The notes beneath the pieces are model-generated. The model saw only the letters and a program-made list of their open reading frames with translations, had not been told where the DNA came from and did not search any database. From the sequence record DRR378314_128: a stretch of 36,533 nucleotides of DNA; one strand, written 5' to 3'. The position numbers and the translations under genes are program-made. Below are positions 2 through 29,169 of this stretch, one piece after another. Numbering within the stretch: the first letter of the stretch is position 1; the number at the start of each line of letters is the position of its first letter.

Positions 2-2887
2 CAGGCGTGGGAATACGCCATGAACGCCCGCGGCGTGAAATGGGTTCTGGTGTCCAACTACATCGAACTGCGCCTCTACGGTTTTGGGGAAGGCACCTCG
101 GCGTATGAAGTCTTTCGCCTCGACAAGCTGACCGACCCGGATGAGTACGCCCGCTTTATGCTCCTGCTCTCGGCGGAAAATCTTCTGTCGGGTCGAACGC
201 TTGACCTGCTCAAGGAAAGCCGTCGCGAAGACAAGGACATCACAGACAAGCTGTACCAGGACTATAAGGACCTGCGGTTTAAACTGCTCCACGCCGTGCA
301 AGAGGCGGATAAGTCCATCGACGCGCTCGACGCGATTGCCCTTGCGCAGAAGATCCTCGACCGCGTGCTCTTCATCGCCTTTGCTGAAGACACCGGCCTT
401 CTGCCCGACAACACGCTCAGTGACGCGTTCTCGCACGTCGATCCGTACAACCCGCGCCCGGTTTGGGAGAATTTCAAGGGTCTCTTCCGCGCCATCGATG
501 CGGGCCGCAATGAGGTCAGGGATGCAGAAGGTAAGGTTCTGGTCCCAGCAATCCCGCGCTACAATGGCGGGCTGTTCCGCACGGACGAAACTATCGACGG
601 CCTCACCCTGCCAGACGCCATCTGCGAAGGCTTCAAGACGCTGGGCGAATATGACTTCGCCTCCGAAGTCTCTGTCACCGTTCTCGGCCACATCTTCGAA
701 CAATCCATCGCTGACGTAGAGCGCCTGCAAGCCATCGCGCGGGGCGAAGAGGAAGAGCCGGAAAAGACCAGCGGAACCAGTGGGCGGCGCAAACGCGACG
801 GGGTGGTCTACACGCCGGACTACATCGCGCGGTTCATTGTGGTCGAAACCCTTGGCGCGCACCTCAAGGAAGCCTTCGAAACCATCCTCCGCGATCACGC
901 CAAGAAGGGAGCGGACATCTCCAACTATGCCGCCATCCCGTGGCGCAGGAAATCGGCCGAGCTGGAAGCCTGGCGGGCCTACCGCGACCGGATCAAGACG
1001 CTGCGCATCGTCGATCCGGCGTGCGGCTCGGGCGTATTCCTCATCATGGCTTTCGACTTCCTCAAGGCCGAACTGTCTCGCGTGAATGACAAGATTGCCG
1101 AGCTGGAAGGCAAGGATCAGCATATCCAGGACCTTCTCGATCCGGATAGCGAAATCCTGTCGAACAACCTCTTCGGCGTTGATGTGAACGCGGAAAGCGT
1201 CGAGATAACCAAGCTGTCGCTTTGGATCAAGACAGCGCGGCGCGGCAAGGTGCTGGACAGCCTTTCGGGCAGTATCCGTGTGGGCGATAGCCTGATCGAG
1301 GACAGCAACTTCGCCTATCTCGATCATGCCTTCACCTGGGAAACAGCGTTCCCTGACGTCTTTGCCGAGGGCGGCTTTGACGTAGTGCTGGGCAACCCGC
1401 CCTATGTGCGCCAAGAGCTTATCTCAGACCTCAAGCCATATCTTCAAAGGCGCTTTGAAAGCTACCATGGTGTGGCCGACCTGTTTTGCTACTTCTACGA
1501 GCGGGGACTCCGTCTGCTAAAACCGGGCGGTCGTTTGGGCTACATTTCTTCGAACACCTTCTTCAAGACAGGTTCGGGCAAACCATTGCGTGAATACCTG
1601 TTGAAGGATGCGACGATTGAAGGCGCGGTCGATTTCGGTGACCTGCAGGTCTTTGAGGGTGTGACAACCTATCCCGCTATCCTTGTTCTGAAGAACCGGA
1701 CTGCCGCCAAGGACCATGAGTTGCGATTCTGGAAAGTTGACGCTCTGCCGGAAACAAACTTCATCGCTAGTTGGGAAGCGGCCCAGGGTCCTTACCCACA
1801 ATCAGCGCTTGAAGCCGGGTCTTGGGAGCTAGAAAATCCCGCTCTGCGCGCCTTGCGAGACAAGGTCAGGAATGGTCGCAAAACAATAAAAGAGGTTTAT
1901 GGATCGCCGCTCTATGGGATCAAAACGGGGCTGAATACAGCCTTCGTGATCGACACTGGTACCAAAGACCGCCTCTGTACCGAGGACCCCAATTCTGCCG
2001 AGCTGATTAAACCGTTCTTGGAAGGCAAAGACTTGAAGAGGTGGCGAGCCGAACCTCGCGATCTCTGGTTGATCTTCACAAGGCGAGGAACGGATATTGA
2101 AGCCTTTCCTGCGATCAAGGCCCACTTAGAAACTAAGCGGGACGCCCTTGAGCCAAAGCCGAAAGATTGGAAGCCACAGGACAGCAAAGACAAATGGCCG
2201 GGCCGTAAAGCAGGTAGCTACAAGTGGTTCGAAATTCAGGACACCGTGGATTATCACGAACAGTTCCCGAGGCCTAAGGTTCTATACCCTGAGTTTTGCG
2301 ATAAACCTCAATTCCAACTCAACGAGTCCCATTACTTCAACAACAAATGCTATTTTGTTCCCACATCAGACACTTGGCTTGCAGCCTACTTAAACTCTAG
2401 ACTCGGTTGGTTTGTGGTTACTGAACGGACTGTGCCCGTCCGTGGTGGCTTCCATCAAATGCACTCCCAGTTCATCGAACAGGTTGTGCTGCCGGATGTG
2501 TCTAATGCCGATCAGGACAAACTCGGAGAATTGGCCGCTGATTGTCAGCGCCTCGCGTCGAAACGCTTAAAGCTCCAAACCGCCCTCACCCGCCGCATTC
2601 CCGACCTCTGCCCGCCAGAGCGCGAGCCAAAGCTCAACACCAAGCTCAAGGAATGGTGGACCCTGTCAGACTTCGCCGCCTTCCGTGCTGAGGTGAAGAA
2701 GGCCTTCAAGGCCGATATCCCGCTTTCCGAACGCTCTGACTGGGAAGATTGGATCACCCGCGACCGCGCCGAAATCGCACGCCTCACCGCCGAAATCGCG
2801 CAAGCCGAAGCTAAGATCGACGGCATCGTCTACGACCTCTTCGACCTCACCCCCGACGAAATCGCCCTTCTGGAAAGCGTGGTGTGA
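2..2887 (+). CDS. Type IIG (Eco57I-like) restriction-modification fusion, N6-adenine methyltransferase with TaqI-C-like TRD; 5' truncated by the window edge
   Basis: The frame is open from base 2 (QAWEYAMNARGVKWVLVSN..LRLY, tail of the nuclease domain). It contains motif X (GVVYTP), motif I (IVDPACGSG), motif IV (FDVVLGNPPY) and a C-terminal TRD (GIKTG, PFLEGKDLKRW, WFEIQD). Confidence 0.92.
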   Translation, partial: QAWEYAMNARGVKWVLVSNYIELRLYGFGEGTSAYEVFRLDKLTDPDEYARFMLLLSAENLLSGRTLDLLKESRREDKDITDKLYQDYKDLRFKLLHAVQEADKSIDALDAIALAQKILDRVLFIAFAEDTGLLPDNTLSDAFSHVDPYNPRPVWENFKGLFRAIDAGRNEVRDAEGKVLVPAIPRYNGGLFRTDETIDGLTLPDAICEGFKTLGEYDFASEVSVTVLGHIFEQSIADVERLQAIARGEEEEPEKTSGTSGRRKRDGVVYTPDYIARFIVVETLGAHLKEAFETILRDHAKKGADISNYAAIPWRRKSAELEAWRAYRDRIKTLRIVDPACGSGVFLIMAFDFLKAELSRVNDKIAELEGKDQHIQDLLDPDSEILSNNLFGVDVNAESVEITKLSLWIKTARRGKVLDSLSGSIRVGDSLIEDSNFAYLDHAFTWETAFPDVFAEGGFDVVLGNPPYVRQELISDLKPYLQRRFESYHGVADLFCYFYERGLRLLKPGGRLGYISSNTFFKTGSGKPLREYLLKDATIEGAVDFGDLQVFEGVTTYPAILVLKNRTAAKDHELRFWKVDALPETNFIASWEAAQGPYPQSALEAGSWELENPALRALRDKVRNGRKTIKEVYGSPLYGIKTGLNTAFVIDTGTKDRLCTEDPNSAELIKPFLEGKDLKRWRAEPRDLWLIFTRRGTDIEAFPAIKAHLETKRDALEPKPKDWKPQDSKDKWPGRKAGSYKWFEIQDTVDYHEQFPRPKVLYPEFCDKPQFQLNESHYFNNKCYFVPTSDTWLAAYLNSRLGWFVVTERTVPVRGGFHQMHSQFIEQVVLPDVSNADQDKLGELAADCQRLASKRLKLQTALTRRIPDLCPPEREPKLNTKLKEWWTLSDFAAFRAEVKKAFKADIPLSERSDWEDWITRDRAEIARLTAEIAQAEAKIDGIVYDLFDLTPDEIALLESVV

Positions 2888-2888
2888 C

Positions 2889-3827
2889 ATGAGTGCGGGG
2901 CTGCCCAATGGGCGCAACATGTGGATACGCGCCTTTTATGGCTTCGATCCTGAACTGGACGGCTATGTCGGATGGACGAATGAAAGTGGTCAGACACGTG
3001 CCCTACGTGAACTGAACGACGGCGATCTGATGATGATTTACGGCGCAGCTTCAGGCAACACCAAGAAGTACATGCGGTCGCATATCCTCGGGTTTGTCGA
3101 GATCGAGGCACGCCCGATACGCGATCACGAAAAGGCGTCTAAAGCTTCGCTTGAGGCCAAAAGAGAAAGAGGCAACGGCGAAAAGTGGACCTATGGCCTT
3201 CCCGTGCGTCGCGCATGGCGTGCGCTCGACAAGATGTCGATCGAGCGCATCGCGCCCGACACTTACGACAAGGACGCGGGCCAAGGCATCGGCGTCTGGG
3301 GGCGCGCGCTGACGCCTGCAGAGATCGACACAGCGCTGAAGATCAAGGTGACCGAGGTCAACGTATTCAGCGAAGAGCCAGTCGGGGATAGCGGTCTGAC
3401 CGACACACCGTTTAAGGAAGAGTTCTTTCCGTCAAAGGCGTTTCCGGGGTCGAGTGGCCAGCGTACCTCCACCTACACAGATGGCGAGACGTTCCTTTAC
3501 CTCGCGAAATTCGATGGCGACGGTGCTGCGCTATTGGGGCGCGCCCAGTCTTTTGGCAGTAAGTCGGTCGCACTGAAGATCGGCGTCTCGAACGATCCGG
3601 CGTCGCGGTCTGACCAGTTAAACGCGGGAATTCCACCCGCTGCGAAGGGGCGGTGGCGGATCGAACTTCAGGCCCCGTTTGCTGATCGGAAAGCGGCTGA
3701 AGCGGCTGAGCAATTGTTCAAGGATAAATCCGGCAAGCTGAAAAGTCTGGGCGGGGAGTTCTTCTGGGGCGATAGTATGGACGCCGTCCTGTTGTTTTCA
3801 TCGATCCCAGGTGTGTCGCGGTTTTGA
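2889..3827 (+). CDS. Putative nuclease: N-terminal PUA/EVE-like domain plus C-terminal GIY-YIG (T5orf172/MUG113-like) domain
   Basis: C-terminal FLYL...LKIGVSNDPASRSDQLN...AEAAE...GGEFF matches the T5orf172-type GIY-YIG pattern. N-terminal W..GW..L.DGDLMMIY...ILGFVEI...LTPAE resembles the EVE/PUA pattern (by eye). Starts 1 bp after the RM stop. Confidence 0.7.
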   Translation: MSAGLPNGRNMWIRAFYGFDPELDGYVGWTNESGQTRALRELNDGDLMMIYGAASGNTKKYMRSHILGFVEIEARPIRDHEKASKASLEAKRERGNGEKWTYGLPVRRAWRALDKMSIERIAPDTYDKDAGQGIGVWGRALTPAEIDTALKIKVTEVNVFSEEPVGDSGLTDTPFKEEFFPSKAFPGSSGQRTSTYTDGETFLYLAKFDGDGAALLGRAQSFGSKSVALKIGVSNDPASRSDQLNAGIPPAAKGRWRIELQAPFADRKAAEAAEQLFKDKSGKLKSLGGEFFWGDSMDAVLLFSSIPGVSRF

Positions 3828-3840
3828 ATGAGGGATTTTG

Positions 3841-4746
3841 ATGAGACGATTTGAAATTGATGCAGAGACGCTCCCAGACCTTCCCGGAATGATGCTTGTC
3901 ACGGTCGAGGCGTTGAAAGACCTCGGCGGGTCCGCGACGATCCAGGAGCTCGATGAGAAGGTGATCGAGCTGGAAGGCGTGACAGAGGCCGAACAGGCTT
4001 TCACCATGCCGCGCGATGAGAATCGGACGCGGGTGAATTACTACTTGGCCTGGGCGCGAACCTATCTGAAGCGCGGAGATGCACTGAACAACTCCAAACG
4101 CGGGGTCTGGGCTTTGACGGAGACAGGGTCCGCGATCTCGGACCTTAGCGCGACACAAGCGATCTATGATCAGGTGACGCAGGAAGAGCGTGAGCGCGCG
4201 CGCCTGAAGCGTCTGGCCGCCAAGAAGGCTGATTCGGACAGGGGCGAAGAGATCGAGGTCATGGCTGACGATGGCCCGACTGATGAGGAAGACTGGAAAT
4301 CGGCACTGCTGGCTGTGTTGGGCAAGATGACCCCAGACGGGTTCGAACGCCTCGCGCAGCGACTCATGCGTGAGGCGGGTTTCACGAAAGTCGAAGTGCG
4401 CGGCAAGTCGGGCGACGGCGGGATCGACGGTGTCGGCGTGCTACGCGTGAACCTCGTGTCGTTCCAGGTCTACTTTCAGTGCAAGCGCTGGAAGGGCAGC
4501 GTTGGCTCCAAGGAAATCCGAGACTTTCGGGGAGCCCTGCAGGGCCGCGCTGACAAAGGGCTTTTCATCACCACTGGGCATTTCACTAGCCAAGCCTCGG
4601 ATGAAGCCACGCGCGACGGCGCGATTGCGATTGATCTCATCGACGGTGATCGGCTCTGCGAGTTGTTGAAGGAAAATCGGTTGGGTGTAGCAACTGAGAT
4701 GATTGAGAGGATTCAAATTCACCCAGATTGGTTTGAAGGAATTTAA
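3841..4746 (+). CDS. mrr: Mrr-family modification-dependent (type IV) restriction endonuclease
   Basis: Mrr_N wHTH (LAWARTYLKR...SKRGVWALT) and Mrr_cat (FERL...SGDGGIDG...FQCKRW...IRDFRGAL...GLFITT...IDLIDG). GAGGG RBS before the ATG at 3841. Confidence 0.93.
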   Translation: MRRFEIDAETLPDLPGMMLVTVEALKDLGGSATIQELDEKVIELEGVTEAEQAFTMPRDENRTRVNYYLAWARTYLKRGDALNNSKRGVWALTETGSAISDLSATQAIYDQVTQEERERARLKRLAAKKADSDRGEEIEVMADDGPTDEEDWKSALLAVLGKMTPDGFERLAQRLMREAGFTKVEVRGKSGDGGIDGVGVLRVNLVSFQVYFQCKRWKGSVGSKEIRDFRGALQGRADKGLFITTGHFTSQASDEATRDGAIAIDLIDGDRLCELLKENRLGVATEMIERIQIHPDWFEGI

Positions 4747-4980
4747 TGCGATTGATGCAGCGGCTTGAGATCATCCGAGCTTGGGCGCGAGATCATCGGC
4801 GTTTATGGCTCAGATTATTTGAATCTCAAAGTCGCCACACGCTCACAATAATTGCGATTGGCGCAGATTATCAGAGACAAGCACAACTCACCGAGACTGA
4901 GCATATCATATCGGGCTTGTGGTCCGAGAACGACTGTTCGTACACTCTGTGCTATCCCTTTGCCGTCCGGGAGAAACAAA

Positions 4981-5382
4981 ATGGCCGACCAGTTCTACCA
5001 GCCTCAACTCGTCGAATGCACCGCAGGATGTGGTCAAGTTGTCTCGGTAGATGCCAAATCATGCCCGAACTGCGGCGATCCTGACCCGGCAAGAATTGGT
5101 GGAATGACGGAAGCAGAGATAGCTTGGCAGAACACTCCTGCAGTTCAGGAAAAGCTAAGAGAAGATCGAGAACGCCGGGAAGCTGAATGGCGACGGTCCG
5201 AGGAAAAGAGGCTTTCCGACAAGAGATTCAATCGATGGTTTCAGATAGTTTGTGGCGGTGTTCTGGCAGGCTGTATCATTACCATTTATCGAGCTGAAAG
5301 CTTGGCCAGCGTTGCTATTTCATTGGTCGTCGGTTTTTTTATGATTCAAGGACTGCTAAACTCGAGTGATAACGACGACTAG
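4981..5382 (+). CDS. Hypothetical protein: zinc ribbon, charged coiled coil and two C-terminal transmembrane helices
   Basis: GGAGA RBS before the ATG at 4981. CTAGC...CPNC motif, E/R-rich helix, and two hydrophobic segments (WFQIVCGGVLAGCIITIY; LASVAISLVVGFFMIQGLL). Confidence 0.7.
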   Translation: MADQFYQPQLVECTAGCGQVVSVDAKSCPNCGDPDPARIGGMTEAEIAWQNTPAVQEKLREDRERREAEWRRSEEKRLSDKRFNRWFQIVCGGVLAGCIITIYRAESLASVAISLVVGFFMIQGLLNSSDNDD

Positions 5383-5415
5383 TTGATCGTGAACTTAGTT
5401 TTTTCGTAGTCTCGC

Positions 5416-5446
5416 AAAAAAGGAAGGAGCCAATTCAGCTCCCTCC
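5416..5446 (-). terminator. Intrinsic terminator, minus strand
   Basis: Minus strand reads GGAGGGAGC-TGAATTG-GCTCCTTCC-TTTTTT: a 9-bp stem with one G:U pair followed by a U-tract. Confidence 0.8.
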
Positions 5447-5545
5447 AAGTTCACGCAGCGTCACTCATTAAGCAAATCCTCAAACGTCCTGCGCTTTAGA
5501 CAAGGGCGCGTAGGTTTCATTGTGTGGAATCTTTGCAGTGCGAAA
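5416..5545 (-). ncRNA. Candidate ~130-nt ncRNA or structured 3' UTR downstream of the Abi-like gene
   Basis: Minus-strand TTGCAT-N16-CACAAT at 5578-5551, an internal hairpin (CCTACGCGCCCTT-GTCT-AAAGCGCAGG) and the terminator at 5446-5416. Confidence 0.35.
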
Positions 5546-5586
5546 TGCGGATTGTGAAACCGAACTACCGAAATGCAACGACATGA

Positions 5587-6360
5587 TCATGTCAGCGTGT
5601 GCCAAGCTTCCACGAAGCTTTCGTAGTCCATCCGCATCCTAAGATAGTGAACTCTGGAAAACCTCTTAAAACTAGTATCGTCTTCGCTTTTTCGAGCGCC
5701 CAATGAGTTTCGTATGAACTCAAGCGCTTGTATGGCCTCCGTTAGGCGCTGCCCATACACAGGCTCATGATGAGCAACTCGGTTGCGAACCGCATATATC
5801 ACTTCAAGTGATTTCGAAATATCACTTCTTTTCAGAGCTTTATTTGGAAAAACTTTCTTTATCGAAGGTTTCCAAAGTTCATCATCATAATCGCTGGAAT
5901 AGAGTCGTTTCCAGAATGAGAACGTTGTTTGTGAAATTATTTGCCCGTGCGATACGACGAACAATGCTTGACGTTTTTTTACTGCAGATTTGTGGCTTGT
6001 GCCTGAAGGTACGCCACCGGGGAATGCGAAAGCGTCGAGGTAGGATTTCTCCTTGTAACTCAATTTGGCATAGGCCGCTTTTTGCGCGTGGTTAATGGCG
6101 CTGCTGATAGCATTTCGTTCAAAAGGCTTTAGGGGCAATGTCGTGTGACCCGGCAGCAGCCAATCATCATCCCCAAAATCATCGATCAAGCGTTGGTTTG
6201 TGCTGTTGCGCAAGGAAAGTTCTAACAGCGCAATCATTGACATTAGTGATGAACCAAGCTGAAGGGTGTGATTGTGCAGTGCAATCGCCTTTTTCTGCCT
6301 ATCGGTATGATTTTCATACGTTTTAAGCCGTTCGGCAGAGATGAAGTCTACTACGTCCAT
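5587..6360 (-). CDS. Abi-like (AbiD/AbiF, Abi_2-type) HEPN ribonuclease
   Basis: IS.ERL..Y N-terminus, LELSLRN, TFSFW..L and the HEPN RxxxxH motif RNRVAHHEP. AT-richer than the element backbone. Confidence 0.82.
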   Translation of the reverse strand: MDVVDFISAERLKTYENHTDRQKKAIALHNHTLQLGSSLMSMIALLELSLRNSTNQRLIDDFGDDDWLLPGHTTLPLKPFERNAISSAINHAQKAAYAKLSYKEKSYLDAFAFPGGVPSGTSHKSAVKKRQALFVVSHGQIISQTTFSFWKRLYSSDYDDELWKPSIKKVFPNKALKRSDISKSLEVIYAVRNRVAHHEPVYGQRLTEAIQALEFIRNSLGARKSEDDTSFKRFSRVHYLRMRMDYESFVEAWHTLT

Positions 6361-6383
6361 AAAGTCACCAAATGAATATCCCC

Positions 6384-6412
6384 TTGAATATCGGTGGATG
6401 TCACGCTATGTC
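6384..6412 (+). promoter_or_regulatory. Putative sigma70 promoter divergent from the Abi-like gene
   Basis: TTGAAT-N17-TATGTC (GCTATG context). Overlaps a TGAATATC direct repeat (6373-6380, 6385-6392). Confidence 0.45.
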
Positions 6413-6417
6413 CAGAG

Positions 6418-6522
6418 TTGAAAGGCCGGGGATTAGGTCGGCAGCGCCGCGAAAGCAGTGACGGACCCCCCGCCTATTGAAGAGAGGTTCACTTACATAT
6501 GTAGGTGAACCTCTTTCTTTTT
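6418..6522 (+). ncRNA. Candidate ~105-nt structured ncRNA, possible RNA antitoxin of the HEPN protein
   Basis: Nested stem AGGC/GCCT, GGGG/CCCC, GGTC/GACC capped by a GC-GAAA-GC tetraloop, then the near-perfect 32-nt hairpin AGAGGTTCACTTACATATGTAGGTGAACCTCT and a U-rich tract. The GNRA loop and G:U pairs favour the plus strand. Confidence 0.55.
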
Positions 6523-6663
6523 CGTCACACGAGAACAATGATCTGGTGGCAGTCAGTGTGACATCTTCCTTCGTGGTTGCCTTACATGCTTCGCACAAGG
6601 TGCATAGAGTTCGACCAGGCGAGGTCGGATCATGAGCTATACAAACGGTAAGGTTTGAAACGG

Positions 6664-6954
6664 TCAAGCGTTGGTATTCACTATCTGTCCCACCTCGATC
6701 GCCTTCGCATCCACATCCAACTCCCTAATCAAAAAACCTTTGTCGCCCCATTTTTGGATGTAGCGCATGTAGCCGTTGCCTTCCGCATCCATAAACAGAC
6801 AGCGAATGTCGCTGTAGTCTCCCCAAACACCTGCAATGGCGATCAACGGGACGCCCTGTGGCAAGCAACACACTTTCTCGAAGTCGCGATAGTCGATCCC
6901 GAAGTCGAGAGCTTGGTGAAAACTCATGGTGAAGCATTGGTGTGGAAACAGCAT
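6664..6954 (-). CDS. Hypothetical protein (96 aa) downstream of the relaxase
   Basis: GAAGGA RBS before the ATG; follows the relaxase stop by 15 bp on the same strand. Confidence 0.6.
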   Translation of the reverse strand: MLFPHQCFTMSFHQALDFGIDYRDFEKVCCLPQGVPLIAIAGVWGDYSDIRCLFMDAEGNGYMRYIQKWGDKGFLIRELDVDAKAIEVGQIVNTNA

Positions 6955-6969
6955 TGTTTTTCCTTCAGA

Positions 6970-8544
6970 TTATAGATGGAAGCCGTATTCACGGTCTTGC
7001 TCAAGGCGCGGCTCATTCAGCTCTCGTTCAGCTGATTTTCGGCGGCTCTCGCTAGTCTCAAACTGGTCTGCAAGTTCTCTTCCAGCGTCGTGTAGCTCTG
7101 CTCTTCGGTCAGTAAGTCGGCCAATGTGGTGACTGACACGAGATGCGATTTCATGAGCAGCTCCACGCACTGTGCTAAGCCATTCAGTCTGGTTTCGATC
7201 CCAGTCGTCGAGCGTTCTTCCAAGCTGCGCAATTCCTTGGCTGAGGTCTCGCAAGCCGCCACCAACCGCTCGACGCACACGAACAAATCTCGCTCCAAGG
7301 CCGTCAGAGGTTGATCCATCTAGTTCGGCTCCACTCTGATGCATGAAACCAATCGGCTCGCCACCGAACAGGTGCGCATGCTTGAAGTCTCTGGCGGCAA
7401 GATCAAATACGTCGCTTGCTCGTGAAGCACCGTCTGAATACCCAACCTCTCTAAATGCGTCGTGGTCGCAATCGTTGAGAGTTTCCAACTCCACAGAAAG
7501 GTCAGCCCCAATGTTGCTAAGATCAGTACCAGACAGACAGTCGCCATCGCCCAGGGTGAAATCCGTAGCAATCGTTTGATTGTGTCGATGTGACTCTGCC
7601 AGGTCGTCCCGTTCCAATCCAGAAACATGCGGGTATCTGATTCGATTGTATTCCGCGCGTGTGTCACACACCCCTGAATATCGTTCCTGAAGCTCTGCAA
7701 TTGAGTTTCCATCAAGGCGGCGTGTTCCTTGCGGATCTCGTCCAGATCCGCGTTCAATTTCTCGCTCAGCCGAGTCGGCTTGCCAGTCGTCACGGAATAT
7801 TTCTCCTTTCAATCGCCAGCGTTCGCCGGTCTCGGGGTCTTTGGCGGTGATGTAATTCTTGCTGGCGCGGGGGATGTCGAAACCAACATCCGTCAAGGCA
7901 TCGATCATACTGGCACGGTCATTGATGGTGCCAATGCTGATCTGGTCGAGGACCCAGCTGTGCAGCTCTTCTCTGCCTTGCGCACGTGTCGGGGCCTCCA
8001 TGAAGGCCTGCACTTCTTGCGCCCGATCCAGATCCATCGGATCGGCCCAGCCGTGTGCCTTGTTCATCAGGTCACGTAGGCTGTCGTAGGCTGATTGATA
8101 GCCTGGAGGCGCGATGTTGAGGCTCTTGCCTGTGGTCAGCTCCAATCGTGGCGTGCAGAAGTGCAATTCAATGCGATCTTCGTGGCTGTGGCGGACCCAG
8201 AGCACATCATATTGCTCGCTATCCAATCCGGCAAAGGCCAGCTTCTCGAAGGCCAGCATGACTTCGGCTTGCTGAGCTTCTGTGGGCGCATCTTCTTCGG
8301 CAAAACTGATGACGCCTGAGCGGTAGGTCCATTGGTTATGGCTCGCGTCGATCAGTGCTTCGGTGCGACAGGGATCACCACGGAGAACTTCGGGTAGCGG
8401 ATCGCGCTTGACCATCACCGGGCGACCATCGGCATCACGGATCAAATCGCGATTGGCGTCATAGGCCAGCACCTCACGCGCAACAAGATAGCCGACCGGT
8501 CCAGCGCCCGGGCCCTTACCGTTGGGAAAAAACTTGATCAGCAT
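6970..8544 (-). CDS. mobA: Relaxase of the ColE1 MbeA/MOB-P5-like type
   Basis: MLIKFF..GKG.GAGPVGYL (catalytic Tyr motif), YRSGVISF.E, FEKLAFAGL..EQYDVLWVRH.....ELHF..P.LEL.TGK.L. Start overlaps the mobC stop. Confidence 0.9.
   Translation of the reverse strand: MLIKFFPNGKGPGAGPVGYLVAREVLAYDANRDLIRDADGRPVMVKRDPLPEVLRGDPCRTEALIDASHNQWTYRSGVISFAEEDAPTEAQQAEVMLAFEKLAFAGLDSEQYDVLWVRHSHEDRIELHFCTPRLELTTGKSLNIAPPGYQSAYDSLRDLMNKAHGWADPMDLDRAQEVQAFMEAPTRAQGREELHSWVLDQISIGTINDRASMIDALTDVGFDIPRASKNYITAKDPETGERWRLKGEIFRDDWQADSAEREIERGSGRDPQGTRRLDGNSIAELQERYSGVCDTRAEYNRIRYPHVSGLERDDLAESHRHNQTIATDFTLGDGDCLSGTDLSNIGADLSVELETLNDCDHDAFREVGYSDGASRASDVFDLAARDFKHAHLFGGEPIGFMHQSGAELDGSTSDGLGARFVRVRRAVGGGLRDLSQGIAQLGRTLDDWDRNQTEWLSTVRGAAHEIASRVSHHIGRLTDRRAELHDAGRELADQFETSESRRKSAERELNEPRLEQDREYGFHL
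7017..7319 (-). CDS. MbeD/MobD-like accessory mobilization protein nested in the relaxase gene (alternative frame)
   Basis: The ATG directly follows the stop of the 7320..7793 ORF and has a GGAG RBS. LTALERDL..CVERL coiled-coil start; same relative position as ColE1 mbeD. Confidence 0.6.
   Translation of the reverse strand: MDQPLTALERDLFVCVERLVAACETSAKELRSLEERSTTGIETRLNGLAQCVELLMKSHLVSVTTLADLLTEEQSYTTLEENLQTSLRLARAAENQLNES
7320..7793 (-). CDS. MbeB/MobB-like membrane-anchored mobilization protein nested in the relaxase gene (alternative frame)
   Basis: Strong AAGGAG RBS before the GTG at 7793. Coiled coil followed by one TM helix (WAMATVCLVLILATLGLTFLW); same relative position as ColE1 mbeB. 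Confidence 0.68.
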   Translation of the reverse strand: MTTGKPTRLSEKLNADLDEIRKEHAALMETQLQSFRNDIQGCVTHARNTIESDTRMFLDWNGTTWQSHIDTIKRLLRISPWAMATVCLVLILATLGLTFLWSWKLSTIATTTHLERLGIQTVLHEQATYLILPPETSSMRTCSVASRLVSCIRVEPN

Positions 8545-8873
8545 TGCCGTGCCTCATCGAGGAGCTGGGAAAGTTGGCGCTCGATCACCACGAGCTGGCG
8601 GGCCAAGGCCAGCGTCTCCAAGTCAATCCGACCAACCAGCAGCGCCCGGTTCACGAACCGCGCAATCTGGTTGAGATTTCCGCCGATGCGTCCGACTGCA
8701 AGAACCAACGCTGGATCAATGCGTGGTGCGGGCTTGCGACGACGAGCTTCGATCAGGCCAAGCGCCTCGCGTAAGAGCGTCGCGGCGGGGACGCCAGCGG
8801 TCTCGGCTTTGGCGCGAAGCTCAGCCTTCTCAGCAGCTGTGCACCGAAATACGAAGGTCTCGGTCAGCGGCAT
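8538..8873 (-). CDS. mobC: MobC relaxosome accessory protein (ribbon-helix-helix)
   Basis: FVFRCT.AEKAEL..KA..AG....LLRE RHH, plus the signature L..IGGNLNQIAR. Start taken as the ATG at 8873, not the longer ORF call. Confidence 0.9.
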   Translation of the reverse strand: MPLTETFVFRCTAAEKAELRAKAETAGVPAATLLREALGLIEARRRKPAPRIDPALVLAVGRIGGNLNQIARFVNRALLVGRIDLETLALARQLVVIERQLSQLLDEARQC

Positions 8874-8879
8874 TTTGGC

Positions 8880-8970
8880 GTGGGGCTTGCCCCCGCCGGG
8901 GGGGTTCGAAGGGGAGGCTTGCCACCCCTCGCAAGGTTCCGTGTCAGCAGCACCAGTGTATGACATGGGT
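8880..8970. promoter_or_regulatory. Putative origin of transfer (oriT) / mob promoter region
   Basis: Lies directly upstream of mobC. GC hairpin 8907-8931, GGCTTGCC present twice, TGTCA..TGACA inverted repeat (8942-8965) enclosing AGTGTAT, reminiscent of the ColE1 oriT core. Confidence 0.5.
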
Positions 8971-9054
8971 CGCCTTGCTCCTTGCTCAACTCGCATGGCG
9001 TACCTCCTGCTCAGATGGCTCGAAAACGGTCCAGCCCTCCTCGATGAGCCAATG

Positions 9055-9717
9055 CTACCAAGCGGGCCAGTTGTCTTTGTTAGTTGGCGGGAACCGGTCT
9101 GGAAGCCGGTATCCGCTAGAGCCGTTCTCCCAGACGACTGGCAGGGCTCTGTCGATCCAGGTTCCAAACATGCGTTCTGTGAACACTTCCCATTGGCGAC
9201 AACCGAATGATGATCGCGGAACGAATACAGCCTGTGGTCCACCCCCGCGCGGCGAGGCGGATGGCTCTCCACTCGTTAGATCCGGCTCAAGCGCGGTCTT
9301 TTGTTCTTTGGATTGTTCGATCTCTATATAGGAAAGATCACCTGTGAGCCTCTTTTCACCCACGGTTGACCCCTTTTCAGTATTCGAAAGGCTCATTGGT
9401 GCGCCCTTTTTCTTGGGACGAAATGGGATGATTTTGGAGGGCGCGCGAAGGTCATATTTGGTGCAGTTTCCGGCGCCACGTCCTTCGGTTCGAAAGAGCC
9501 AACCGAACTCAACAAGCTGTCGAAGGCATCGCTTGATGGTTGCTAATGACATACCCGCCAAAAACTCGTCCAATGTGTTCAGCGATGGATTGAGCTGGCC
9601 AGTTTTGTCGTTGGCGAACTGAACGGAAAGCGCCGATGCGACCGCTTTTGTAGATGAATTGAGGTCGGCACATTGCAGAACAGCTTTAAGCCATTCAAAA
9701 CGGTTAAGCTTAGTCAT
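9055..9717 (-). CDS. Winged helix-turn-helix protein, probable replication initiator of the element
   Basis: GGAGG RBS before the ATG at 9717. L..STKAVA..L...N...GQLNPS..TL....MS..TIKRCL..L...GWL pattern of HTH_36-type initiators; lies upstream of mob. Confidence 0.72.
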   Translation of the reverse strand: MTKLNRFEWLKAVLQCADLNSSTKAVASALSVQFANDKTGQLNPSLNTLDEFLAGMSLATIKRCLRQLVEFGWLFRTEGRGAGNCTKYDLRAPSKIIPFRPKKKGAPMSLSNTEKGSTVGEKRLTGDLSYIEIEQSKEQKTALEPDLTSGEPSASPRGGGPQAVFVPRSSFGCRQWEVFTERMFGTWIDRALPVVWENGSSGYRLPDRFPPTNKDNWPAW

Positions 9718-9732
9718 GTGCACCTCCCGCGA

Positions 9733-9761
9733 TTGCGGTCAGATGGTCTTTTTGATAAACT
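9733..9761 (+). promoter_or_regulatory. Sigma70 promoter with extended -10, antisense to the rep leader
   Basis: TTGCGG-N17-TAAACT preceded by TGn. Confidence 0.65.
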
Positions 9762-9767
9762 GTGTGT

Positions 9768-9825
9768 GCAGAAAGATTTGCATTGCCGTTGAGGTGGGTG
9801 GCCGCCCCCTCAACGGTTTTTCTTT
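9768..9825 (+). ncRNA. Counter-transcribed RNA (ctRNA)-like replication regulator, ~55-60 nt
   Basis: Lies between the promoter above and the hairpin CCGTTGAGG-TGGGTGGCCGCCC-CCTCAACGG-TTTTTCTTT, opposite the leader of the rep-like gene. Confidence 0.6.
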
Positions 9826-10368
9826 GAGTCGCACCGATTTTTTGGTTCGCCAGGCACTTAATTTCTCTAGTAGTTTCAATGCGCCATTTTTGGCGGTTCG
9901 TCAGTTTAAGTCGATGATTTCTTTGCGCAGTTCCACGCCTGCACGGCTCACCACTTTTTCCAAATGGAAGATGACACGAAGTTCGTCTCTTTTGACAAGA
10001 GTTTGTCGCTTTTATGGGAAACTCTTGGGCTTTGCATCATGCGTCTCATGGGTGCACTGTTAAGCTCGGTGCCGACATCTGGATTCAAATACAGAGCGCC
10101 TATGATGTAGCGCATGCTTCTTGCGATGTGGATGTGTCAGGTATTTCGACATTGAAGACTGCCAAGTGAATGCGGCCGGGCGTGTTCCCAAGCACATGTC
10201 AAGCGGAGGGTTGATAAAACCGCAGCTCCACGCCCCCATACTCAGTAGAAAAACCGCCTTGAAGGACCTGTCACCTGTCTGACAATCAGGCTATGCCTAG
10301 GGTTGTATTTAATAATTGGCTCGCACCAGCTCATTGTACGGTGCGGGCATAAAATTTGGCAGGTTGCG

Positions 10369-13300
10369 ATGAATAGTGGGTTCCATGAGATTCTAGGTTA
10401 CTGGCGCGCGTCGTTGGCGGATGGTGCATTGGGGCGGGGTCGCTTCAGGCAGCGGGATCGGAAGGATTTCATCGAACTGTCGAAAGACACGCTGCGCGAT
10501 GGAGTGCTGCCTAAGAAGCAGGTTCGCAATGTTTTTGAAGGACAGAAGCCGGATACCAAGGTAGTAGACGTACAAATCTGGCCGATGGTCATGGCTCGGA
10601 GAACTTCCCACGGTGCGACTATATCCAATGGTTCTCCAGAAATCGTCGCACCTGTAGTTACAGAGGCGACCGTCGATAGAGACGGTAACATTCGCCCATC
10701 CCGAAACGTCATTGCGAGAGACGTGCTGAAGCCACTCCCCAACGATGTTTTTTCGCTCGGCAAGGTTGAAGATTTCGACACCTTTCTTTCAGCATCGCCC
10801 TTCTCGCCTGACGAAAACTCCCCTGTTTGGGACCAATACCTAAAACACTGTCGTGCAATGCTCGATGCCGTTTCTCCCGGGTGGCCATCTGACGATGACA
10901 ATTATCTCTCTGCCGGCGTGGGATTTATGGAGGTTTCCGGTGAGGCTGCCGCAGCTATTGCGCAAGTTATCAGCCTCTATGACACGCTGCTTGGTGAAAA
11001 TCACAAAGCGCCGCTGTTAGAAAATCTGGCCGGATCGCCCTCAACCAAAAAGGAGCTTTCTCCTCAGACGGAAGCGAACTTCATAAATCGACTGGGACAT
11101 GCCAGCGATGAATTTCCGCTCGCAGATCATCAACGTCAGGTTCTTTCATATCTCTCAACCGGAAAACCCAGCGATGTGCTTGCCGTCAACGGGCCTCCTG
11201 GAACAGGCAAGACGACAATGCTCCTGTCGGCCATTGCAGATGCGTGGGTTCGCGCAGCGCTGGAAGAAAGTGCTCCACCGGTCATCGTCGCGGCGTCCAC
11301 CAATAACCAGGCTGTAACAAACATTATCGACGCGTTCGGCAAGGACTTCTCCGAAGGCGAAGGCCCATTCGCGGGTCGTTGGTTGCCTGGCCTCAAAAGC
11401 TACGGGTTGTTTCTTCCAGCAAAATCAAAAGAGGCCGAGGCTGCTCGCCGGTATCAAACTGAGCGGTACTTCAATGAACTAGAAAGCCATGACTATGTTC
11501 CCCGCGCCAGAGACGCTTTTCTGGAGGCAGGGAAATCGGCATTTCCGGGCCTTGAAAATCCAGATGTGAAAGAGATCGTATCTTCCTTACACAAGCGGAT
11601 TGCTGAAGAGGTTGCAAAACTGTCCGATGCGGACAAGTCACGGAAATGGGTTGAGGAGGCAACATCGAAAGTTGTTAACCTATTGGGCGACGATGCCGAG
11701 GCAACACTGCTGCAGGTGGAAAAAGCAATGCAGGATGGCGCAGCAGAACTTGAGCGCCACAAGACTTGGGAATCCGGGTGGACCAAACATCAGGCTGATG
11801 AATCTGTCTTTTTAGTAATGTTCAACTTTCTTCCATCTGTGGCTCAAAAAAGAGTGATGAAAGGGCGTGTCTCCCTGGAAACCATCGGCTGCACGCTGGA
11901 TTTCTCCGATGTCAGTTCGGTTGAAAGTTTGGGGAATAGCCTGCGAAATGCGGTTCGAATTGCACAGGAGGCTGCTAAAACCACCAAGTCCAGATATGAG
12001 GCAGCACGGTCAGCGTTAGAAAATCTGAATCAGGCGAAGAGAGCATGGGCGCGCGCAACGGAAAATCTTGGTGCGTCGGCCGTTCCAGCAACTGATGCAT
12101 TGGACGTCGATAGATTTGCCGATTGCCACGCCCGTTTTCTTCTTTTCCGATTGGCTTGCCACTATTGGGAGGGGCGGTGGCTTCTGGAAATGGAAGATAG
12201 CTTAGACGATATCGTGGCGTCGCATCGGAAAACCGGGCGGAAAACAATCGAACCACGCTGGCACCGTCGTATGATGCTGACACCCTGTGCTGTTTCCACG
12301 TTTGCGAGCTTGCCAGGCAAAATGAGCTTTGGTCTGAAGTCTGGCGGTGAATGGGGCACAGGCTATTTGTTCGACTTCATCGACTTGCTGATTGTTGACG
12401 AAGCCGGGCAAGTCTTGCCGGAGGTTGCGGCGCCCTCGTTTGCATTAGCGAAGTGCGCCTTGGTCATTGGGGACACCCAGCAGATTGAACCAATCTCATC
12501 TGTGTCTAAAGCAGTCGATATTGGCAATCTGCAAAGTGCCGGTTTTCTAAAAGAGACCTATGCCGAGGCCGATTTGGCGACACTGTCAGATACGGGCATG
12601 CGTAGTGTTGACGGTAGTGTAATGCGCCTCGCCCAGCAAGCGTGCGTCTATGAGCCTTACCCGGAATTAGAGCGAGGGCTTTACCTGTTCGAGCATCGGC
12701 GTTGCTATGACGAAATCATCAATTTCAGCAACAAACTCTGCTACAAAGGATCGCTCAAACCGATGCGAGGCAGTGCTTCCGAGGGTCGCGCTGTGCCGTC
12801 GATGGGGTACCTACATATTGATGGTATGGCTTTGAGTTTTGGCGGCAGCCGCGCAAATGCGACTGAAGCTGCAACAATTGCAGACTGGCTCGCGGAAAAT
12901 CGGCAGGATATTGAAGACCAATACAACAAAAAACTGGAAGATATAGTCGGTGTCGTCACCCCCTTCGGACGACAGGTGCAAGAAATCAAACGGGCTTGTG
13001 CCGAACGAGGCATTGACGCGAAAATGACCGTTGGCACGGTTCACTCGCTTCAAGGGGCTGAGCGACCAATCATCCTATTTTCACCGGTTTATTCCAAACA
13101 TGCCGACGGGCATTTCATCGACATGTCACCAAGTATGCTGAATGTGACCGTATCACGTGCAAAAGACAGCTTCCTTGTCTTCGGTGACATGGATGTATTT
13201 TCGTCGGCTGCGAAGGGTACGCCCAGATCGGTCTTGGCTGAATGTCTGTTCTCTCAGAGCGATGGCGTGCTTGAGTTTACTGCGCAGCCGCGCTCCGATC

Positions 13301-13785
13301 TTCAGGATTCAAGTCACCCGCTTTCGACATTGAGAGACGCAGAAGAACACGATCGGTTCTTGAAAAATGCCCTGTCCACAGCCCGTGAAATGACCATCGT
13401 CAGCCCGTGGATCATTGCCTCAACAATGAAACGTGCTGGGTTACTGGATGCTTTCCAAGGTGCGGTGGCGCGGGGTGCAGAAATCGATGTCATCGCAGAT
13501 CCTCTGTTGAACCAGTTGAAGTACGATGATGGCGTAACACAGCTAGAAGCAGCAACATCTGCACTGCAAGATGTAGGTGTACGAGTCCACGAAGTGCGTC
13601 AGCTGCACAGCAAGATTGTCATAGTGGATGTCAATTGGCTTTGCATCGGCTCCTACAATTGGCTGAGCGCTGACCGGAAGGGCCGATATGCGCGCCACGA
13701 AACGTCGATCGTGTACAATGGTTCGCACCTTCAAAGCGAGATTGACGTCATCAAGCAAAGCCTAGGTGCTCGCGAAAAGCGCTGA
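10369..13785 (+). CDS. SF1 (DNA2/NAM7/Upf1-like) helicase fused to a C-terminal PLD nuclease; Mokosh type II (MkoC)/YjhR-like defence protein
   Basis: Walker A NGPPGTGKTT, ASTNNQAVTNI, IVDEAGQ, IGDTQQIEPI, EHRRC, GVVTPF, GTVHSLQGAER, LNVTVSRAK. C-terminal single HKD motif LHSKIVIVD...GSYNW. Start taken as the ATG at 10369. Confidence 0.85.
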   Translation: MNSGFHEILGYWRASLADGALGRGRFRQRDRKDFIELSKDTLRDGVLPKKQVRNVFEGQKPDTKVVDVQIWPMVMARRTSHGATISNGSPEIVAPVVTEATVDRDGNIRPSRNVIARDVLKPLPNDVFSLGKVEDFDTFLSASPFSPDENSPVWDQYLKHCRAMLDAVSPGWPSDDDNYLSAGVGFMEVSGEAAAAIAQVISLYDTLLGENHKAPLLENLAGSPSTKKELSPQTEANFINRLGHASDEFPLADHQRQVLSYLSTGKPSDVLAVNGPPGTGKTTMLLSAIADAWVRAALEESAPPVIVAASTNNQAVTNIIDAFGKDFSEGEGPFAGRWLPGLKSYGLFLPAKSKEAEAARRYQTERYFNELESHDYVPRARDAFLEAGKSAFPGLENPDVKEIVSSLHKRIAEEVAKLSDADKSRKWVEEATSKVVNLLGDDAEATLLQVEKAMQDGAAELERHKTWESGWTKHQADESVFLVMFNFLPSVAQKRVMKGRVSLETIGCTLDFSDVSSVESLGNSLRNAVRIAQEAAKTTKSRYEAARSALENLNQAKRAWARATENLGASAVPATDALDVDRFADCHARFLLFRLACHYWEGRWLLEMEDSLDDIVASHRKTGRKTIEPRWHRRMMLTPCAVSTFASLPGKMSFGLKSGGEWGTGYLFDFIDLLIVDEAGQVLPEVAAPSFALAKCALVIGDTQQIEPISSVSKAVDIGNLQSAGFLKETYAEADLATLSDTGMRSVDGSVMRLAQQACVYEPYPELERGLYLFEHRRCYDEIINFSNKLCYKGSLKPMRGSASEGRAVPSMGYLHIDGMALSFGGSRANATEAATIADWLAENRQDIEDQYNKKLEDIVGVVTPFGRQVQEIKRACAERGIDAKMTVGTVHSLQGAERPIILFSPVYSKHADGHFIDMSPSMLNVTVSRAKDSFLVFGDMDVFSSAAKGTPRSVLAECLFSQSDGVLEFTAQPRSDLQDSSHPLSTLRDAEEHDRFLKNALSTAREMTIVSPWIIASTMKRAGLLDAFQGAVARGAEIDVIADPLLNQLKYDDGVTQLEAATSALQDVGVRVHEVRQLHSKIVIVDVNWLCIGSYNWLSADRKGRYARHETSIVYNGSHLQSEIDVIKQSLGAREKR

Positions 13786-16156: not shown

Positions 16157-17146
16157 TCAGGCGAGGCTGACAACTGTTCCCTGTTTCAGCGAAGTATCCG
16201 CCGCGTCTGCCAGAATCTGTGCGCGCAATCCGTCGATGATTCCAGGCGAAAGGGGCTCAGACCCGCTCATCGCTGTGATGAAATGAGCCATCTCGGCGCG
16301 ATAGGCGCTCTCATAGCGCTCCAGGAAGAAATGCTGGGCCGGGGCTTTGCGGAATCCCAGCGGGGTCGCAATTTCGACCGTATTTTCCAACATGTTTTCC
16401 GCGCGCAACAGACCTTTCTCACCATGCACCTCGATGCGTTGGTCATAGCCATAGCTGGCGCGACGCGAATTTGAGATCTGGCAAATCTTGCCGCTGGCTG
16501 TCGTCAAGGTAACGGCTGCTGTATCGACATCTCCGGCTTTGCCAATCTCGGGATCGACGAGCGATGACCCAACAGCATATACGCCGACCGGTTCTTCGCC
16601 CAGCAGAAAGCGAGCCATGTCGAGATCGTGGATCATCATATCGCGGAACAACCCGCCTGAACTTTTGATATAGCTGATCGGTGGTGGTGAGGGGTCGCGG
16701 GACAGGATGGTGACGATCTCGACGTTTCCGATTTCGCCGTTGGTTATGCGGGATTGGATGTTAGCAAAACTTGGGTCAAAGCGGCGGTTAAAGGCGGTCA
16801 TAAAGGGCACGCCTGTGGCCTCGACCACTTTGATACAGTCGCGGATACGGTCGGCAGACATATCGACCGGTTTTTCGCAGAAGATCGCTTTGCCTGCGTT
16901 CGCAGCTTGGTGAATCAGGTCGTAATGGGTGTCGGTCGGGGTTCCGATGACCACCGCATCGACATCCGTGCTTTCGATCAGGTCTTCCGCCGGCAGCACG
17001 TTTGCGCCGGTTTTGTCAGCCAGTATCTGGGCGGGTTCGGCAAATGCGTCGGCCACAGCCGTGACCCGCGCGCCATCAATCTGCCCGATCGAGCGCGCAT
17101 GCACCTGCCCGATACGCCCGCAACCAAGAAGCCCGATATTCAGCAT
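16157..17146 (-). CDS. iolG: myo-Inositol 2-dehydrogenase
   Basis: GCGRIG, CEKP, FNRRFDP, SRDP.PPP..Y...SGG.FRDMMIHD, YGYDQRIEVHG, FFLERY. Confidence 0.95.
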   Translation of the reverse strand: MLNIGLLGCGRIGQVHARSIGQIDGARVTAVADAFAEPAQILADKTGANVLPAEDLIESTDVDAVVIGTPTDTHYDLIHQAANAGKAIFCEKPVDMSADRIRDCIKVVEATGVPFMTAFNRRFDPSFANIQSRITNGEIGNVEIVTILSRDPSPPPISYIKSSGGLFRDMMIHDLDMARFLLGEEPVGVYAVGSSLVDPEIGKAGDVDTAAVTLTTASGKICQISNSRRASYGYDQRIEVHGEKGLLRAENMLENTVEIATPLGFRKAPAQHFFLERYESAYRAEMAHFITAMSGSEPLSPGIIDGLRAQILADAADTSLKQGTVVSLA

Positions 17147-17147
17147 G

Positions 17148-17978
17148 TCATGCCCCTTTGAATGCCTGCAGAACCCGGCGTGTCGCCTCGACCACCGGTT
17201 CGTGTGTCTCTTTCAGGATTTGAACGCGGTCGAACCTGTCTGGGTCGGTGTTCACAGCCGTGCGCAGGGCGTTCCCGAAGGCCATCCGCAGCTCGGTCCC
17301 GATGTTGAACTTGCAGACCTTAGACCCGCGCGCCAGCGCTGTGCGCTGCGCAACAGGGACGCCTGATCCACCGTGAATGACCAGTGGAACTTCGGTCACG
17401 GCTTCGATGGCACGAATGCGGGCCTTGTCCAGACCGCCTTCTTTGTTCTGTTGCAAATGGACGTTGCCGACCGAGATTGCCATTGCGTCTACGCCAGTCT
17501 CACGGGCGAACCGTGCTGCCTCATCCGGGTCGGTTCCGTCTGAATCTTCTCCGCCTGAATAGCCCACAAAGCCAATCTCTCCTTCGCAGGAGACCCCGGC
17601 GGCATGTGCCATCTCGGCTATCGCCGCAGTTTCTTCAATGTTCTGGGCCAATGGTTTGCGCGAGCCGTCGAACATGACTGAGGTGAAGCCACTATCGATA
17701 GCGACGCGGCACTCTTCATGGGTGTAACCGTGATCCAGATGCGCGACGACGGGAACACTCGCTCCTTCGGCCAGATGGCGGAACATCTTACCTAAGATCG
17801 GCAGCGGCGTATGTTCGCGACAGGACGGCCCGGCTTGCAGGATAATGGGCACATCTTCGGCCTCGGCTGCGGCCACATAGGCGCGCATGTCTTCCCAACC
17901 CAGCGTTACCAGACCCGCCACGGCGTAGCTGTCACGTAGCGCCGGTTGCAGCACATCCGATAATGTCACAAGGCTCAT
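17148..17978 (-). CDS. Class II fructose-bisphosphate aldolase family; probable 6-phospho-5-dehydro-2-deoxy-D-gluconate aldolase (IolJ role)
   Basis: AHLDHG, FTSVMFDGS, EGEIG, GNVH, LVIHGGSG, KFNIGTEL; located inside the iol operon. Confidence 0.9.
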   Translation of the reverse strand: MSLVTLSDVLQPALRDSYAVAGLVTLGWEDMRAYVAAAEAEDVPIILQAGPSCREHTPLPILGKMFRHLAEGASVPVVAHLDHGYTHEECRVAIDSGFTSVMFDGSRKPLAQNIEETAAIAEMAHAAGVSCEGEIGFVGYSGGEDSDGTDPDEAARFARETGVDAMAISVGNVHLQQNKEGGLDKARIRAIEAVTEVPLVIHGGSGVPVAQRTALARGSKVCKFNIGTELRMAFGNALRTAVNTDPDRFDRVQILKETHEPVVEATRRVLQAFKGA

Positions 17979-18832: not shown

Positions 18833-18844
18833 CTGCGTCTCCTT

Positions 18845-22526: not shown

Positions 22527-22602
22527 GTCTGCGGGCTCCTTTGGAAAATTGCGGTGCAGTGCCGAATGCAGCTTGCGAGAGTCCTATTCTCACGATACAA
22601 GT

Positions 22603-22620
22603 TTTGCAACCGGTTGCAAA
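22603..22620. promoter_or_regulatory. LacI-family operator between divergent iol operons
   Basis: Perfect palindrome TTTGCAACCGGTTGCAAA with a central CG; an identical copy lies at 26903. Confidence 0.88.
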
Positions 22621-22654
22621 TGGTTTTCAAGAAAAAGCGAAGGAGGGCGTCAGA

Positions 22655-23758: not shown

Positions 23759-23777
23759 GCATCGGAGACAAGACAAG

Positions 23778-24671: not shown

Positions 24672-24684
24672 GGAGGTCCAGACA

Positions 24685-26819: not shown

Positions 26820-26901
26820 ATCCCGTTTGACCTTTCTAAGTTTTCAGCAGCCCTTTTACGCGTATTCCCTGGCAGATACAGTATGAAACACATCTAATAT
26901 G

Positions 26902-26921
26902 TTTTGCAACCGGTTGCAAAA
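26902..26921. promoter_or_regulatory. LacI-family operator between the regulator and the ABC transporter operon
   Basis: Perfect 20-bp palindrome TTTTGCAACCGGTTGCAAAA. Confidence 0.88.
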
Positions 26922-27006
26922 TGTGATCGGATATGCTCTAACTCGAGTCGGAGAGGTGCAGAGGGCAGCCTCAATCCGCGATAACATGAGTTTTTGGGAG
27001 GACATC

Positions 27007-27957: not shown

Positions 27958-27967
27958 TTCTTACAGC

Positions 27968-29168: not shown

Positions 29169-29169
29169 T

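Follow-up and report, generated by a model that had tools for sequence, protein, structure and literature searches.

Does a stand-alone HEPN gene with no protein antitoxin beside it have an RNA partner? The question is posed by a 36,533-nucleotide (nt) stretch of DNA from sequence record DRR378314_128 (hereafter the window), in which an abi-like gene encoding a 257-residue HEPN protein is read on the minus strand. The original prediction, made from the DNA letters before any database search, held that a small RNA transcribed divergently from just upstream of this gene is the antitoxin or ligand of the protein. We found that positions 5587-6522 are a self-contained two-part cassette with strict linkage of RNA and gene. 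Judged by comparative sequence analysis, the RNA (called type A below) is a real, conserved and previously unannotated family coupled, in divergent orientation, to an AbiF-like HEPN gene.

Linkage and structure of the type A RNA

Relatives came from a scan of species-representative genomes: of 600 pattern matches 516 were confirmed as relatives, from which the best 79 loci were taken. The main comparison set comprised 38 loci (the window, L001-L033 and the plasmid loci L080-L083) with protein identities of 33-88%, and spans alpha-, beta- and gamma-proteobacteria, including four plasmids. When the 330 nt upstream of the gene were read, the element was seen in every one of 17 loci from among the closest. 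A covariance model built from 18 sequences (R1) scored the window RNA at 100.9 bits (expectation value (E) 4.9e-25; 6418-6521, plus strand) and, in 13 more loci (Paraburkholderia, Pigmentiphaga, Rhizobiales and others), located the RNA just ahead of the gene and on the strand opposite to it. Protein identity at these 13 loci is 38-46% in the genome-scan table and 33-40% in the 31-sequence alignment. A second model, from 29 sequences (R2), added L023 and the four plasmid loci (Cupriavidus, Methylobacterium pMNOD05, Agrobacterium and Xanthomonas citri); the RNA site is without annotation on all four plasmids. The original prediction had staked itself on conserved structure next to homologs, and a covarying RNA was found there: in 36 of the 38 loci a covariance-model match with E < 1e-3 lies just ahead of the gene's 5' end and on the other strand, 18 of these 36 being absent from the seed alignment. 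At L024 the copy has diverged (E 0.007-0.06) and its P3 hairpin is larger. L032 is a remnant: a single deletion took away the RNA core and the start of the gene (~116 codons, judged from an alignment with its relative L016), and the terminator is all that is left of the RNA. Elsewhere in ~0.5 Mb of loci only two matches reached E < 1e-3, one in L002 and one at L032 832-926. The L002 match (R1, 6617-6686) was rejected as a second RNA copy, the match being driven by the terminator after rplP.

The limits of the cassette were sharp. In blastn comparisons the window aligned to the other loci only from 5587/5591 to 6487/6526, both flanks being unrelated. As nucleotide similarity stops at the stop codon of the gene and at the terminator of the RNA, gene and RNA make up one cassette. 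All-against-all comparison of the open reading frames (ORFs) of 37 loci gave no conserved protein partner, the Abi-like protein being the only one common to all, which bears out the prediction that no protein antitoxin is present. An ORF cluster common to 11 loci was rejected as a partner, as it mostly reflects synteny among Paraburkholderia genomes. A blastn search of the cassette against plasmids gave no match. The RNA core gave three plasmid matches at E 0.4; the two of them that were checked (L084 and L085) had no covariance-model match and were rejected as chance. In Paraburkholderia haematera (L016) the Burkholderia small RNA BcKCsr7 (RF02884, 146 bits) lies at 2510-2662 on the minus strand, ~170 nt from the type A RNA.

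The ends of the type A RNA were placed from the -10 box (5') and the U-tract (3'). When 18 sequences were aligned with MAFFT, RNAalifold predicted a structure of 31 pairs, of which 18 show compensatory changes (Table 1). The multi-segment stem with a GAAA tetraloop predicted at 6423-6475 is present and its structure is conserved in relatives. The near-perfect 32-nt palindromic hairpin predicted at 6483-6514, with its U-tract, was recovered as an inverted repeat (6483-6498/6499-6514; 16/16 nt, 94% complementary), and the terminator scan called 6481-6516 plus CTTTTTCGTC on the plus strand. The plus strand of 6415-6525 folds with -48.8 kcal/mol (z = -5.47), and none of 200 shuffles was as stable. 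No tandem repeats were found in 5300-7000.

The covariation check that the original prediction had proposed for the upstream regions of homologs was made on a 29-sequence alignment. Standard pairs filled 97.2% of the 892 pair cells, versus 35-49% in controls slid by 1-3 columns; changes on both sides were seen in 23 of the 31 pairs, and none of 500 shuffles reached any of the observed pairing measures. Compensatory changes were found in all 12 pairs of the terminator, and P2 covaries from GUC/GAC to GUG/CAC with its outer pair going from G-C to A-U, C-G or U-A. The most conserved part of the RNA is the 55-nt core ahead of the terminator. Variation within the core is concentrated in the short P3 hairpin, which covaries as a stem, and the unpaired GGCAG and RCG bases are invariant across loci, which suggests a putative binding site. 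An 11-nt inverted repeat (6097-6107/6438-6448, 10/11 complementary) gives the abi mRNA a same-sense near-copy of the invariant loop region at 6097-6107; in such GC-rich DNA the repeat is probably due to chance.

The alignment also fixed the strand. There are 77 G-U pair cells, and pairing was 97.2% on the window plus strand versus 89.6% on the opposite strand. The P3 caps (GAAA, GCAA, GAGA, UUCG or YNCG) read as such only on the plus strand, and it is on this strand that the U-tract follows the terminator hairpin. RNA and gene are hence divergently oriented, as had been predicted.

Known RNA families did not account for the element. The Rfam 15 covariance models at gathering score gave no match in the whole window, and Rfam scans of related loci likewise yielded no family for the element. 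The abiF motif (RF03085) was absent from the window at gathering score, from 5300-6750 at E <= 10 and from 29 related loci, whereas the positive control, phage phiC2, showed it ahead of abiF with 37.6 bits. The suggestion of a new RNA family was thereby upheld. A divergently transcribed RNA with a HEPN toxin was not found among the literature matches listed, nor by a term search of PMC12373285. Weak Rfam matches to ctRNA_p42d, mir-329 and SSRC38 (E 0.14-0.24) cover terminator hairpins only and were rejected as chance. That such matches are terminator-like, and that the hairpin, being preceded by an A-run, could act weakly in both directions, would suit an unrelated hitch-hiking small RNA, or a terminator or insulator serving neighbouring genes. 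We consider this highly improbable given that conservation peaks in the core rather than in the terminator, and that the flanking genes vary whereas RNA and gene keep together across the full range of protein identity and in three proteobacterial classes.

Table 1 Features of the window, with the cassette first and its surroundings after
Feature	Position	Strand	Basis or detail
Abi-like HEPN gene	5587..6360	-	257-residue ORF with RNRVAHHEP
Conserved protein motifs	E47-x2-L-R51-N52; R192-N-R-V-A-H197-H-E-P (Rx4H)	-	31-sequence alignment
Predicted RNA promoter	6384..6412	+	-35 TTGAAT 6384-6389, 17-nt spacer, -10 TATGTC 6407-6412
Candidate abi promoter	6385..6414	-	-35 TGGACA 6414-6409, -10 GATATT/TATTCA 6392-6385; promoter-like site in scan
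Small structured RNA (type A), ~103 nt	6420..6522	+	Covariance model R1 on 6418-6521
RNA core (P1-P2-P3 stack)	6423..6475	+	MAFFT/RNAalifold structure
P1	6423-6431 with 6468-6475, C6426 bulged	+	Conserved structure
Junction AUUA	6432-6435	+	Conserved structure
P2	GGUC 6436-6439 with GACC 6464-6467	+	Conserved structure
Invariant internal loop	G6440 G6441 C6442 A6443 G6444 opposite A6461 C6462 G6463	+	Per-column conservation
Variable P3	6445-6450 with 6455-6460, GAAA tetraloop 6451-6454	+	Conserved structure
Linker	6476-6480	+	Between core and terminator
Intrinsic terminator	6481..6522	+	16-base-pair hairpin 6481-6516, then U-rich tail
Terminator-like hairpin and T-run downstream of abi-like gene	5422..5446	-	Terminator scan; outside conserved cassette
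MmeI/Eco57I-type restriction-modification fusion	20-2887
Weak EVE-like protein	2889-3827
Mrr	3838-4746
Zinc-ribbon membrane protein	4852-5382
MbeA-like relaxase	6970-8544
NikA-like protein	within 8538-9272
Superfamily 1 (SF1) helicase-phospholipase D (PLD) nuclease	10303-13785
Inositol-catabolism-like and sugar ABC transporter genes	16157-29958

The HEPN protein and its known relatives

The stand-alone HEPN gene with its RNRVAHHEP motif read as the original prediction had described it. Across the 31 aligned sequences E47, R51, N52 and R192-N-R-V-A-H197-H198 vary little or not at all. The best profile match of the protein was PADLOC PD-T4-5 (PDLC04038; E 4.5e-17, 60.3 bits), in which residues 2-218 align with profile positions 9-222 of 309; the PADLOC AbiD profile matched with E 3e-6. 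The Pfam match to HEPN_RiboL-PSP was weak (E 4e-4), and no NCBIfam name was found for the protein. An AlphaFold 2 (AF2) model (predicted local distance difference test (pLDDT) 94.4, predicted template modelling score (pTM) 0.87) gave, by Foldseek, 8vz6_A as its top fold match in the PDB, a PbAbiF dimer with noncoding RNA (E 3.6e-3, probability 1.00, template modelling (TM) scores 0.55/0.49, ~11% identity). As all later matches had E >= 0.29, 8vz6_A was the sole meaningful one; a sequence-profile search of the PDB gave no match. By its modelled fold and the PD-T4-5 and AbiD profiles the protein is AbiF-like, and its profile score makes it a distant member of the PD-T4-5 family. The HEPN Rx4H motif and the PbAbiF-like fold mark it as a predicted endoribonuclease. 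In a clustered protein set 249 relatives were found at E <= 1e-10 among 567 candidates, the closest being 88% identical. The named proteins among the homologues listed are all called 'hypothetical protein', and 4 of the 120 homologues listed have a precomputed PF07751 match.

The first characterisation of AbiF-type HEPN toxins with RNA antitoxins dates from 2025, and these toxins have been put forward as ancestors of Cas13. The window resembles AbiF/AbiFr (PbAbiF, 8VZ6) and AbiFCd/RCd22 of Clostridioides difficile in having an HEPN toxin of the Abi_2 type, of similar size and fold, a small structured RNA immediately upstream and no protein antitoxin. According to PMC12373285, RCd22 is encoded ahead of abiF in the same orientation, shares a transcript with it, contains two abiF motifs (RF03085) and neutralises the AbiF toxin through direct binding. 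Neutralisation of AbiF toxins by a cis-encoded noncoding RNA is described in PMC12373285, PMC12737573 and PMC13064643, the latter two being reviews which treat PbAbiF/AbiFr as both a type III system and a Cas13 ancestor. Whereas the AbiF RNAs are same-strand, co-transcribed and carry one or two 36-37-nt abiF hairpins (PMC12373285), the window RNA is on the opposite strand, is single-copy, has its own predicted promoter and terminator, folds differently into three helices and does not match RF03085. The distance between the window protein and 8VZ6 (~11% identity, no sequence-level PDB match) is a further difference.

The other relative, PD-T4-5, is an Abi defence gene carried on an Escherichia coli plasmid; Vassallo et al. 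2022 (PMC9519451) describe it as distantly related to AbiF/D. The window protein matches the PD-T4-5 profile with 60 bits, and the E. coli plasmid protein encoded at L086 with 435. PADLOC represents PD-T4-5 by a single protein model and no RNA partner is mentioned in those passages of PMC9519451 that name PD-T4-5, whereas the window cassette has one.

Proposed role of the RNA

We put at about 60% the probability that the type A RNA is transcribed on its own and acts in trans as an antitoxin or ligand of the HEPN protein. The ~103-nt RNA, which folds as a three-helix stack with its invariant internal loop, followed by its own terminator, would bind the HEPN protein so as to block the RNase active site, thereby acting as an RNA antitoxin by type III logic. 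If a phage infected the cell or the cassette was lost, the RNA would be displaced or its supply cut, and the freed RNase would cause growth arrest or abortive infection. Overlapping back-to-back promoters would probably couple expression of toxin and RNA. We infer the steps of transcription, binding, inhibition and triggering, the antitoxin role being drawn by analogy with AbiF/AbiFr and RCd22.

The pattern of gene decay bears on this proposal. In four loci (L020, L031, L033 and L083) the gene is frameshifted yet the RNA is kept, and none of the 38 loci has an intact gene without the RNA. This asymmetry fits an antitoxin, although the numbers are small. The same evidence of linkage and structure would serve an RNA that the protein needs for its activity (a scaffold, sensor or guide-like co-factor), instead of or besides an antitoxin. 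PMC13064643 and bioRxiv 10.1101/2024.05.05.592566 report that AbiF and AbiV cannot do without the upstream RNA region in their action against phages, and PMC12737573 ties the family to the origin of Cas13. We regard a co-factor role as unlikely, however, as no variable spacer-like segment was seen, the sole variable part being the covarying P3 stem, and the frameshifted genes that keep their RNA suit an antitoxin better, few as they are.

A different role, that of controlling abi expression, was raised by the geometry of the promoters. Both hexamers of the predicted RNA promoter TTGAAT-N17-TATGTC were found in place, and its boxes are conserved upstream of the RNA in related loci. By eye, TTGCAT/TTGAAT and TATGTC/TATATC/TAAATA precede the RNA in most alpha-clade loci, and the beta-clade promoter reads TTGACC-N17-TAAAAT. 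On the other strand the site at 6385-6414 is a candidate abi promoter, which would overlap that of the RNA back-to-back; an abi-side pattern TnGACA-N18-TATGCA recurs in alpha-clade loci. In the window the -35 box of the RNA promoter is 24 nt from the abi start codon. The 5' end of the RNA is 39-59 nt from the ATG in the alpha clade and 33 nt in the beta clade, where the -35 box TTGACC overlaps the start codon. In the Paraburkholderia clade (L016-L022, L028 and L031, ~2934-2970) the two -10 boxes would both fall on a near-palindromic TTTTAAAA.

Such closeness, together with the overlap of the minus strand promoter-like site with the RNA's -10 box, would favour an RNA gene that acts on abi by promoter occlusion or interference, or by pairing with the abi mRNA in type I fashion. 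The type I pairs tisB/istR-1 and zor/orz have a divergent small RNA, and like the window they place a small RNA gene divergently beside the 5' end of the toxin gene. Type I RNAs pair with the mRNA of a small membrane peptide toxin, whereas the window toxin is a soluble 257-residue HEPN protein and its RNA shows no better-than-chance complementarity. Antisense pairing of the RNA to the abi start region was rejected, since the duplex energies were no better than those of shuffles (mean z -0.54 over 23 loci, by a crude test). Moreover, promoter interference alone does not require selection on the RNA product, as seen in its compensatory pairs, tetraloops and invariant loops, and thus cannot account for it. 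We therefore judge expression control to be quite unlikely as the function of the RNA. Given the overlapping promoter geometry, mutual interference is plausible as a second layer.

The term 'type III-like' used in the original prediction needs a caveat. The classical type III systems (ToxIN/AbiQ, CptIN and TenpIN) share the proposed logic of an endoribonuclease held by a directly binding RNA, and also the setting of mobile elements and abortive infection. Their antitoxins, however, are tandem repeats located upstream on the same strand and processed by the toxin, whereas the window RNA is single-copy, non-repeated and divergent, and their toxins have the ToxN/AbiQ fold rather than the HEPN fold. 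Hence, the label does not hold for the gene layout, which lacks tandem repeats upstream on the same strand.

Several points weigh against the antitoxin or ligand proposal. The pairing of HEPN protein and RNA is known here from sequence alone and, to our knowledge, a single-copy, divergent RNA is unlike every characterised type III antitoxin. The type A RNA has no detectable similarity to the abiF motif, and the window's own P3 has a C-A mismatch (6448/6457). The consensus promoter scan of the window did not call the plus strand RNA promoter, because the scan demands a T at position 6 of the second hexamer. The Pfam Abi_2 score (PF07751) of the protein, 24.0 bits (E 5.5e-5), is under the gathering cut-off of 25.6 bits. 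The frameshifts seen in draft assemblies could be artefacts of sequencing. As to the pairing statistics, the model was used to fit the 29-sequence alignment, and mere relatedness can let sequences outdo shuffles even where no structure exists; this concern is lessened by the slid controls and by the independent MAFFT alignment, which gave the same pairs. Lastly, the RNA class may already be contained in the primary AbiF/Cas13 paper (Cell 2025, PMID 39970912).

Distant relatives and genomic setting

A more distant set of 46 loci (L034-L079; 23-31% protein identity), mostly from Actinobacteria and Acidobacteria with some other phyla, has, 57-98 nt ahead of the gene match, a second RNA (type B) read from the other strand (e.g. 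L046 2863-2919 and L067 2865-2921). Its layout is CCCCGG-NN-P2-CYCUG-(hairpin, UUCG/GAAA loop)-CAYG-P2'-CCGGGG-U-tract. Covariance model R3 placed type B at the expected site in 35 of the 46 loci (28 seeds and 7 new), covariation was seen in P2 and the outermost pair, and Rfam gave no match. The 5' half resembles the abiF consensus CCCGCC-A-AGC-CUCU. Sharing of a P1-bulge-P2-CUCU signature with the abiF motif would make the RNA partner an ancestral trait of the AbiD/F-Cas13 lineage, in which the genomic arrangement of the RNA may vary but not its presence. L073 has a second type B RNA (4544-4602, minus strand) 28 nt from a second Abi-like ORF (4630-5340, plus strand; …LRSRIAHHEPI…), and an extra type B copy at L071 176-234 (minus strand), with no Abi-like ORF alongside, may be an orphan.

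Enterobacterial plasmid genes of the PD-T4-5 type likewise have upstream a unit composed of an opposite-strand promoter, ~95 nt and a terminator. In L086 (~1290-1425, minus strand) TTGACG-N17-TATTGT is followed by ~95 nt and a terminator. The regions upstream of 'Abi family protein' genes in L087, L088 and L091-L093 are similar, with UUCG/CUCG terminator loops on the strand of the unit. The evidence for these RNA units is thin because there are only five sequences and a conserved upstream gene of ~190 residues could share the terminator. A blastn search with the PD-T4-5 upstream region gave only four full-length, near-identical copies and was thus uninformative on covariation. That the whole RNRxAHHEP branch, including PD-T4-5 and spanning Proteobacteria, Actinobacteria and Acidobacteria, works as RNA-protein pairs in which the RNA is flipped and has its own promoter and terminator is a tentative generalisation to which we give slightly less than even odds.

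The type A cassettes would extend the RNA-protein principle of AbiF to a large unannotated proteobacterial clade with another RNA fold and gene layout. Divergent RNA partners escape annotation pipelines and catalogues of single-gene defence systems, and 'single-gene' Abi_2 and PD-T4-5 systems merit re-examination for hidden ones. The covariance model could annotate hundreds of loci, and the invariant loop bases are clear targets for mutagenesis. In the window itself the cassette sits within a defence and mobility island at 20-13785, the genes of which are given in Table 1.

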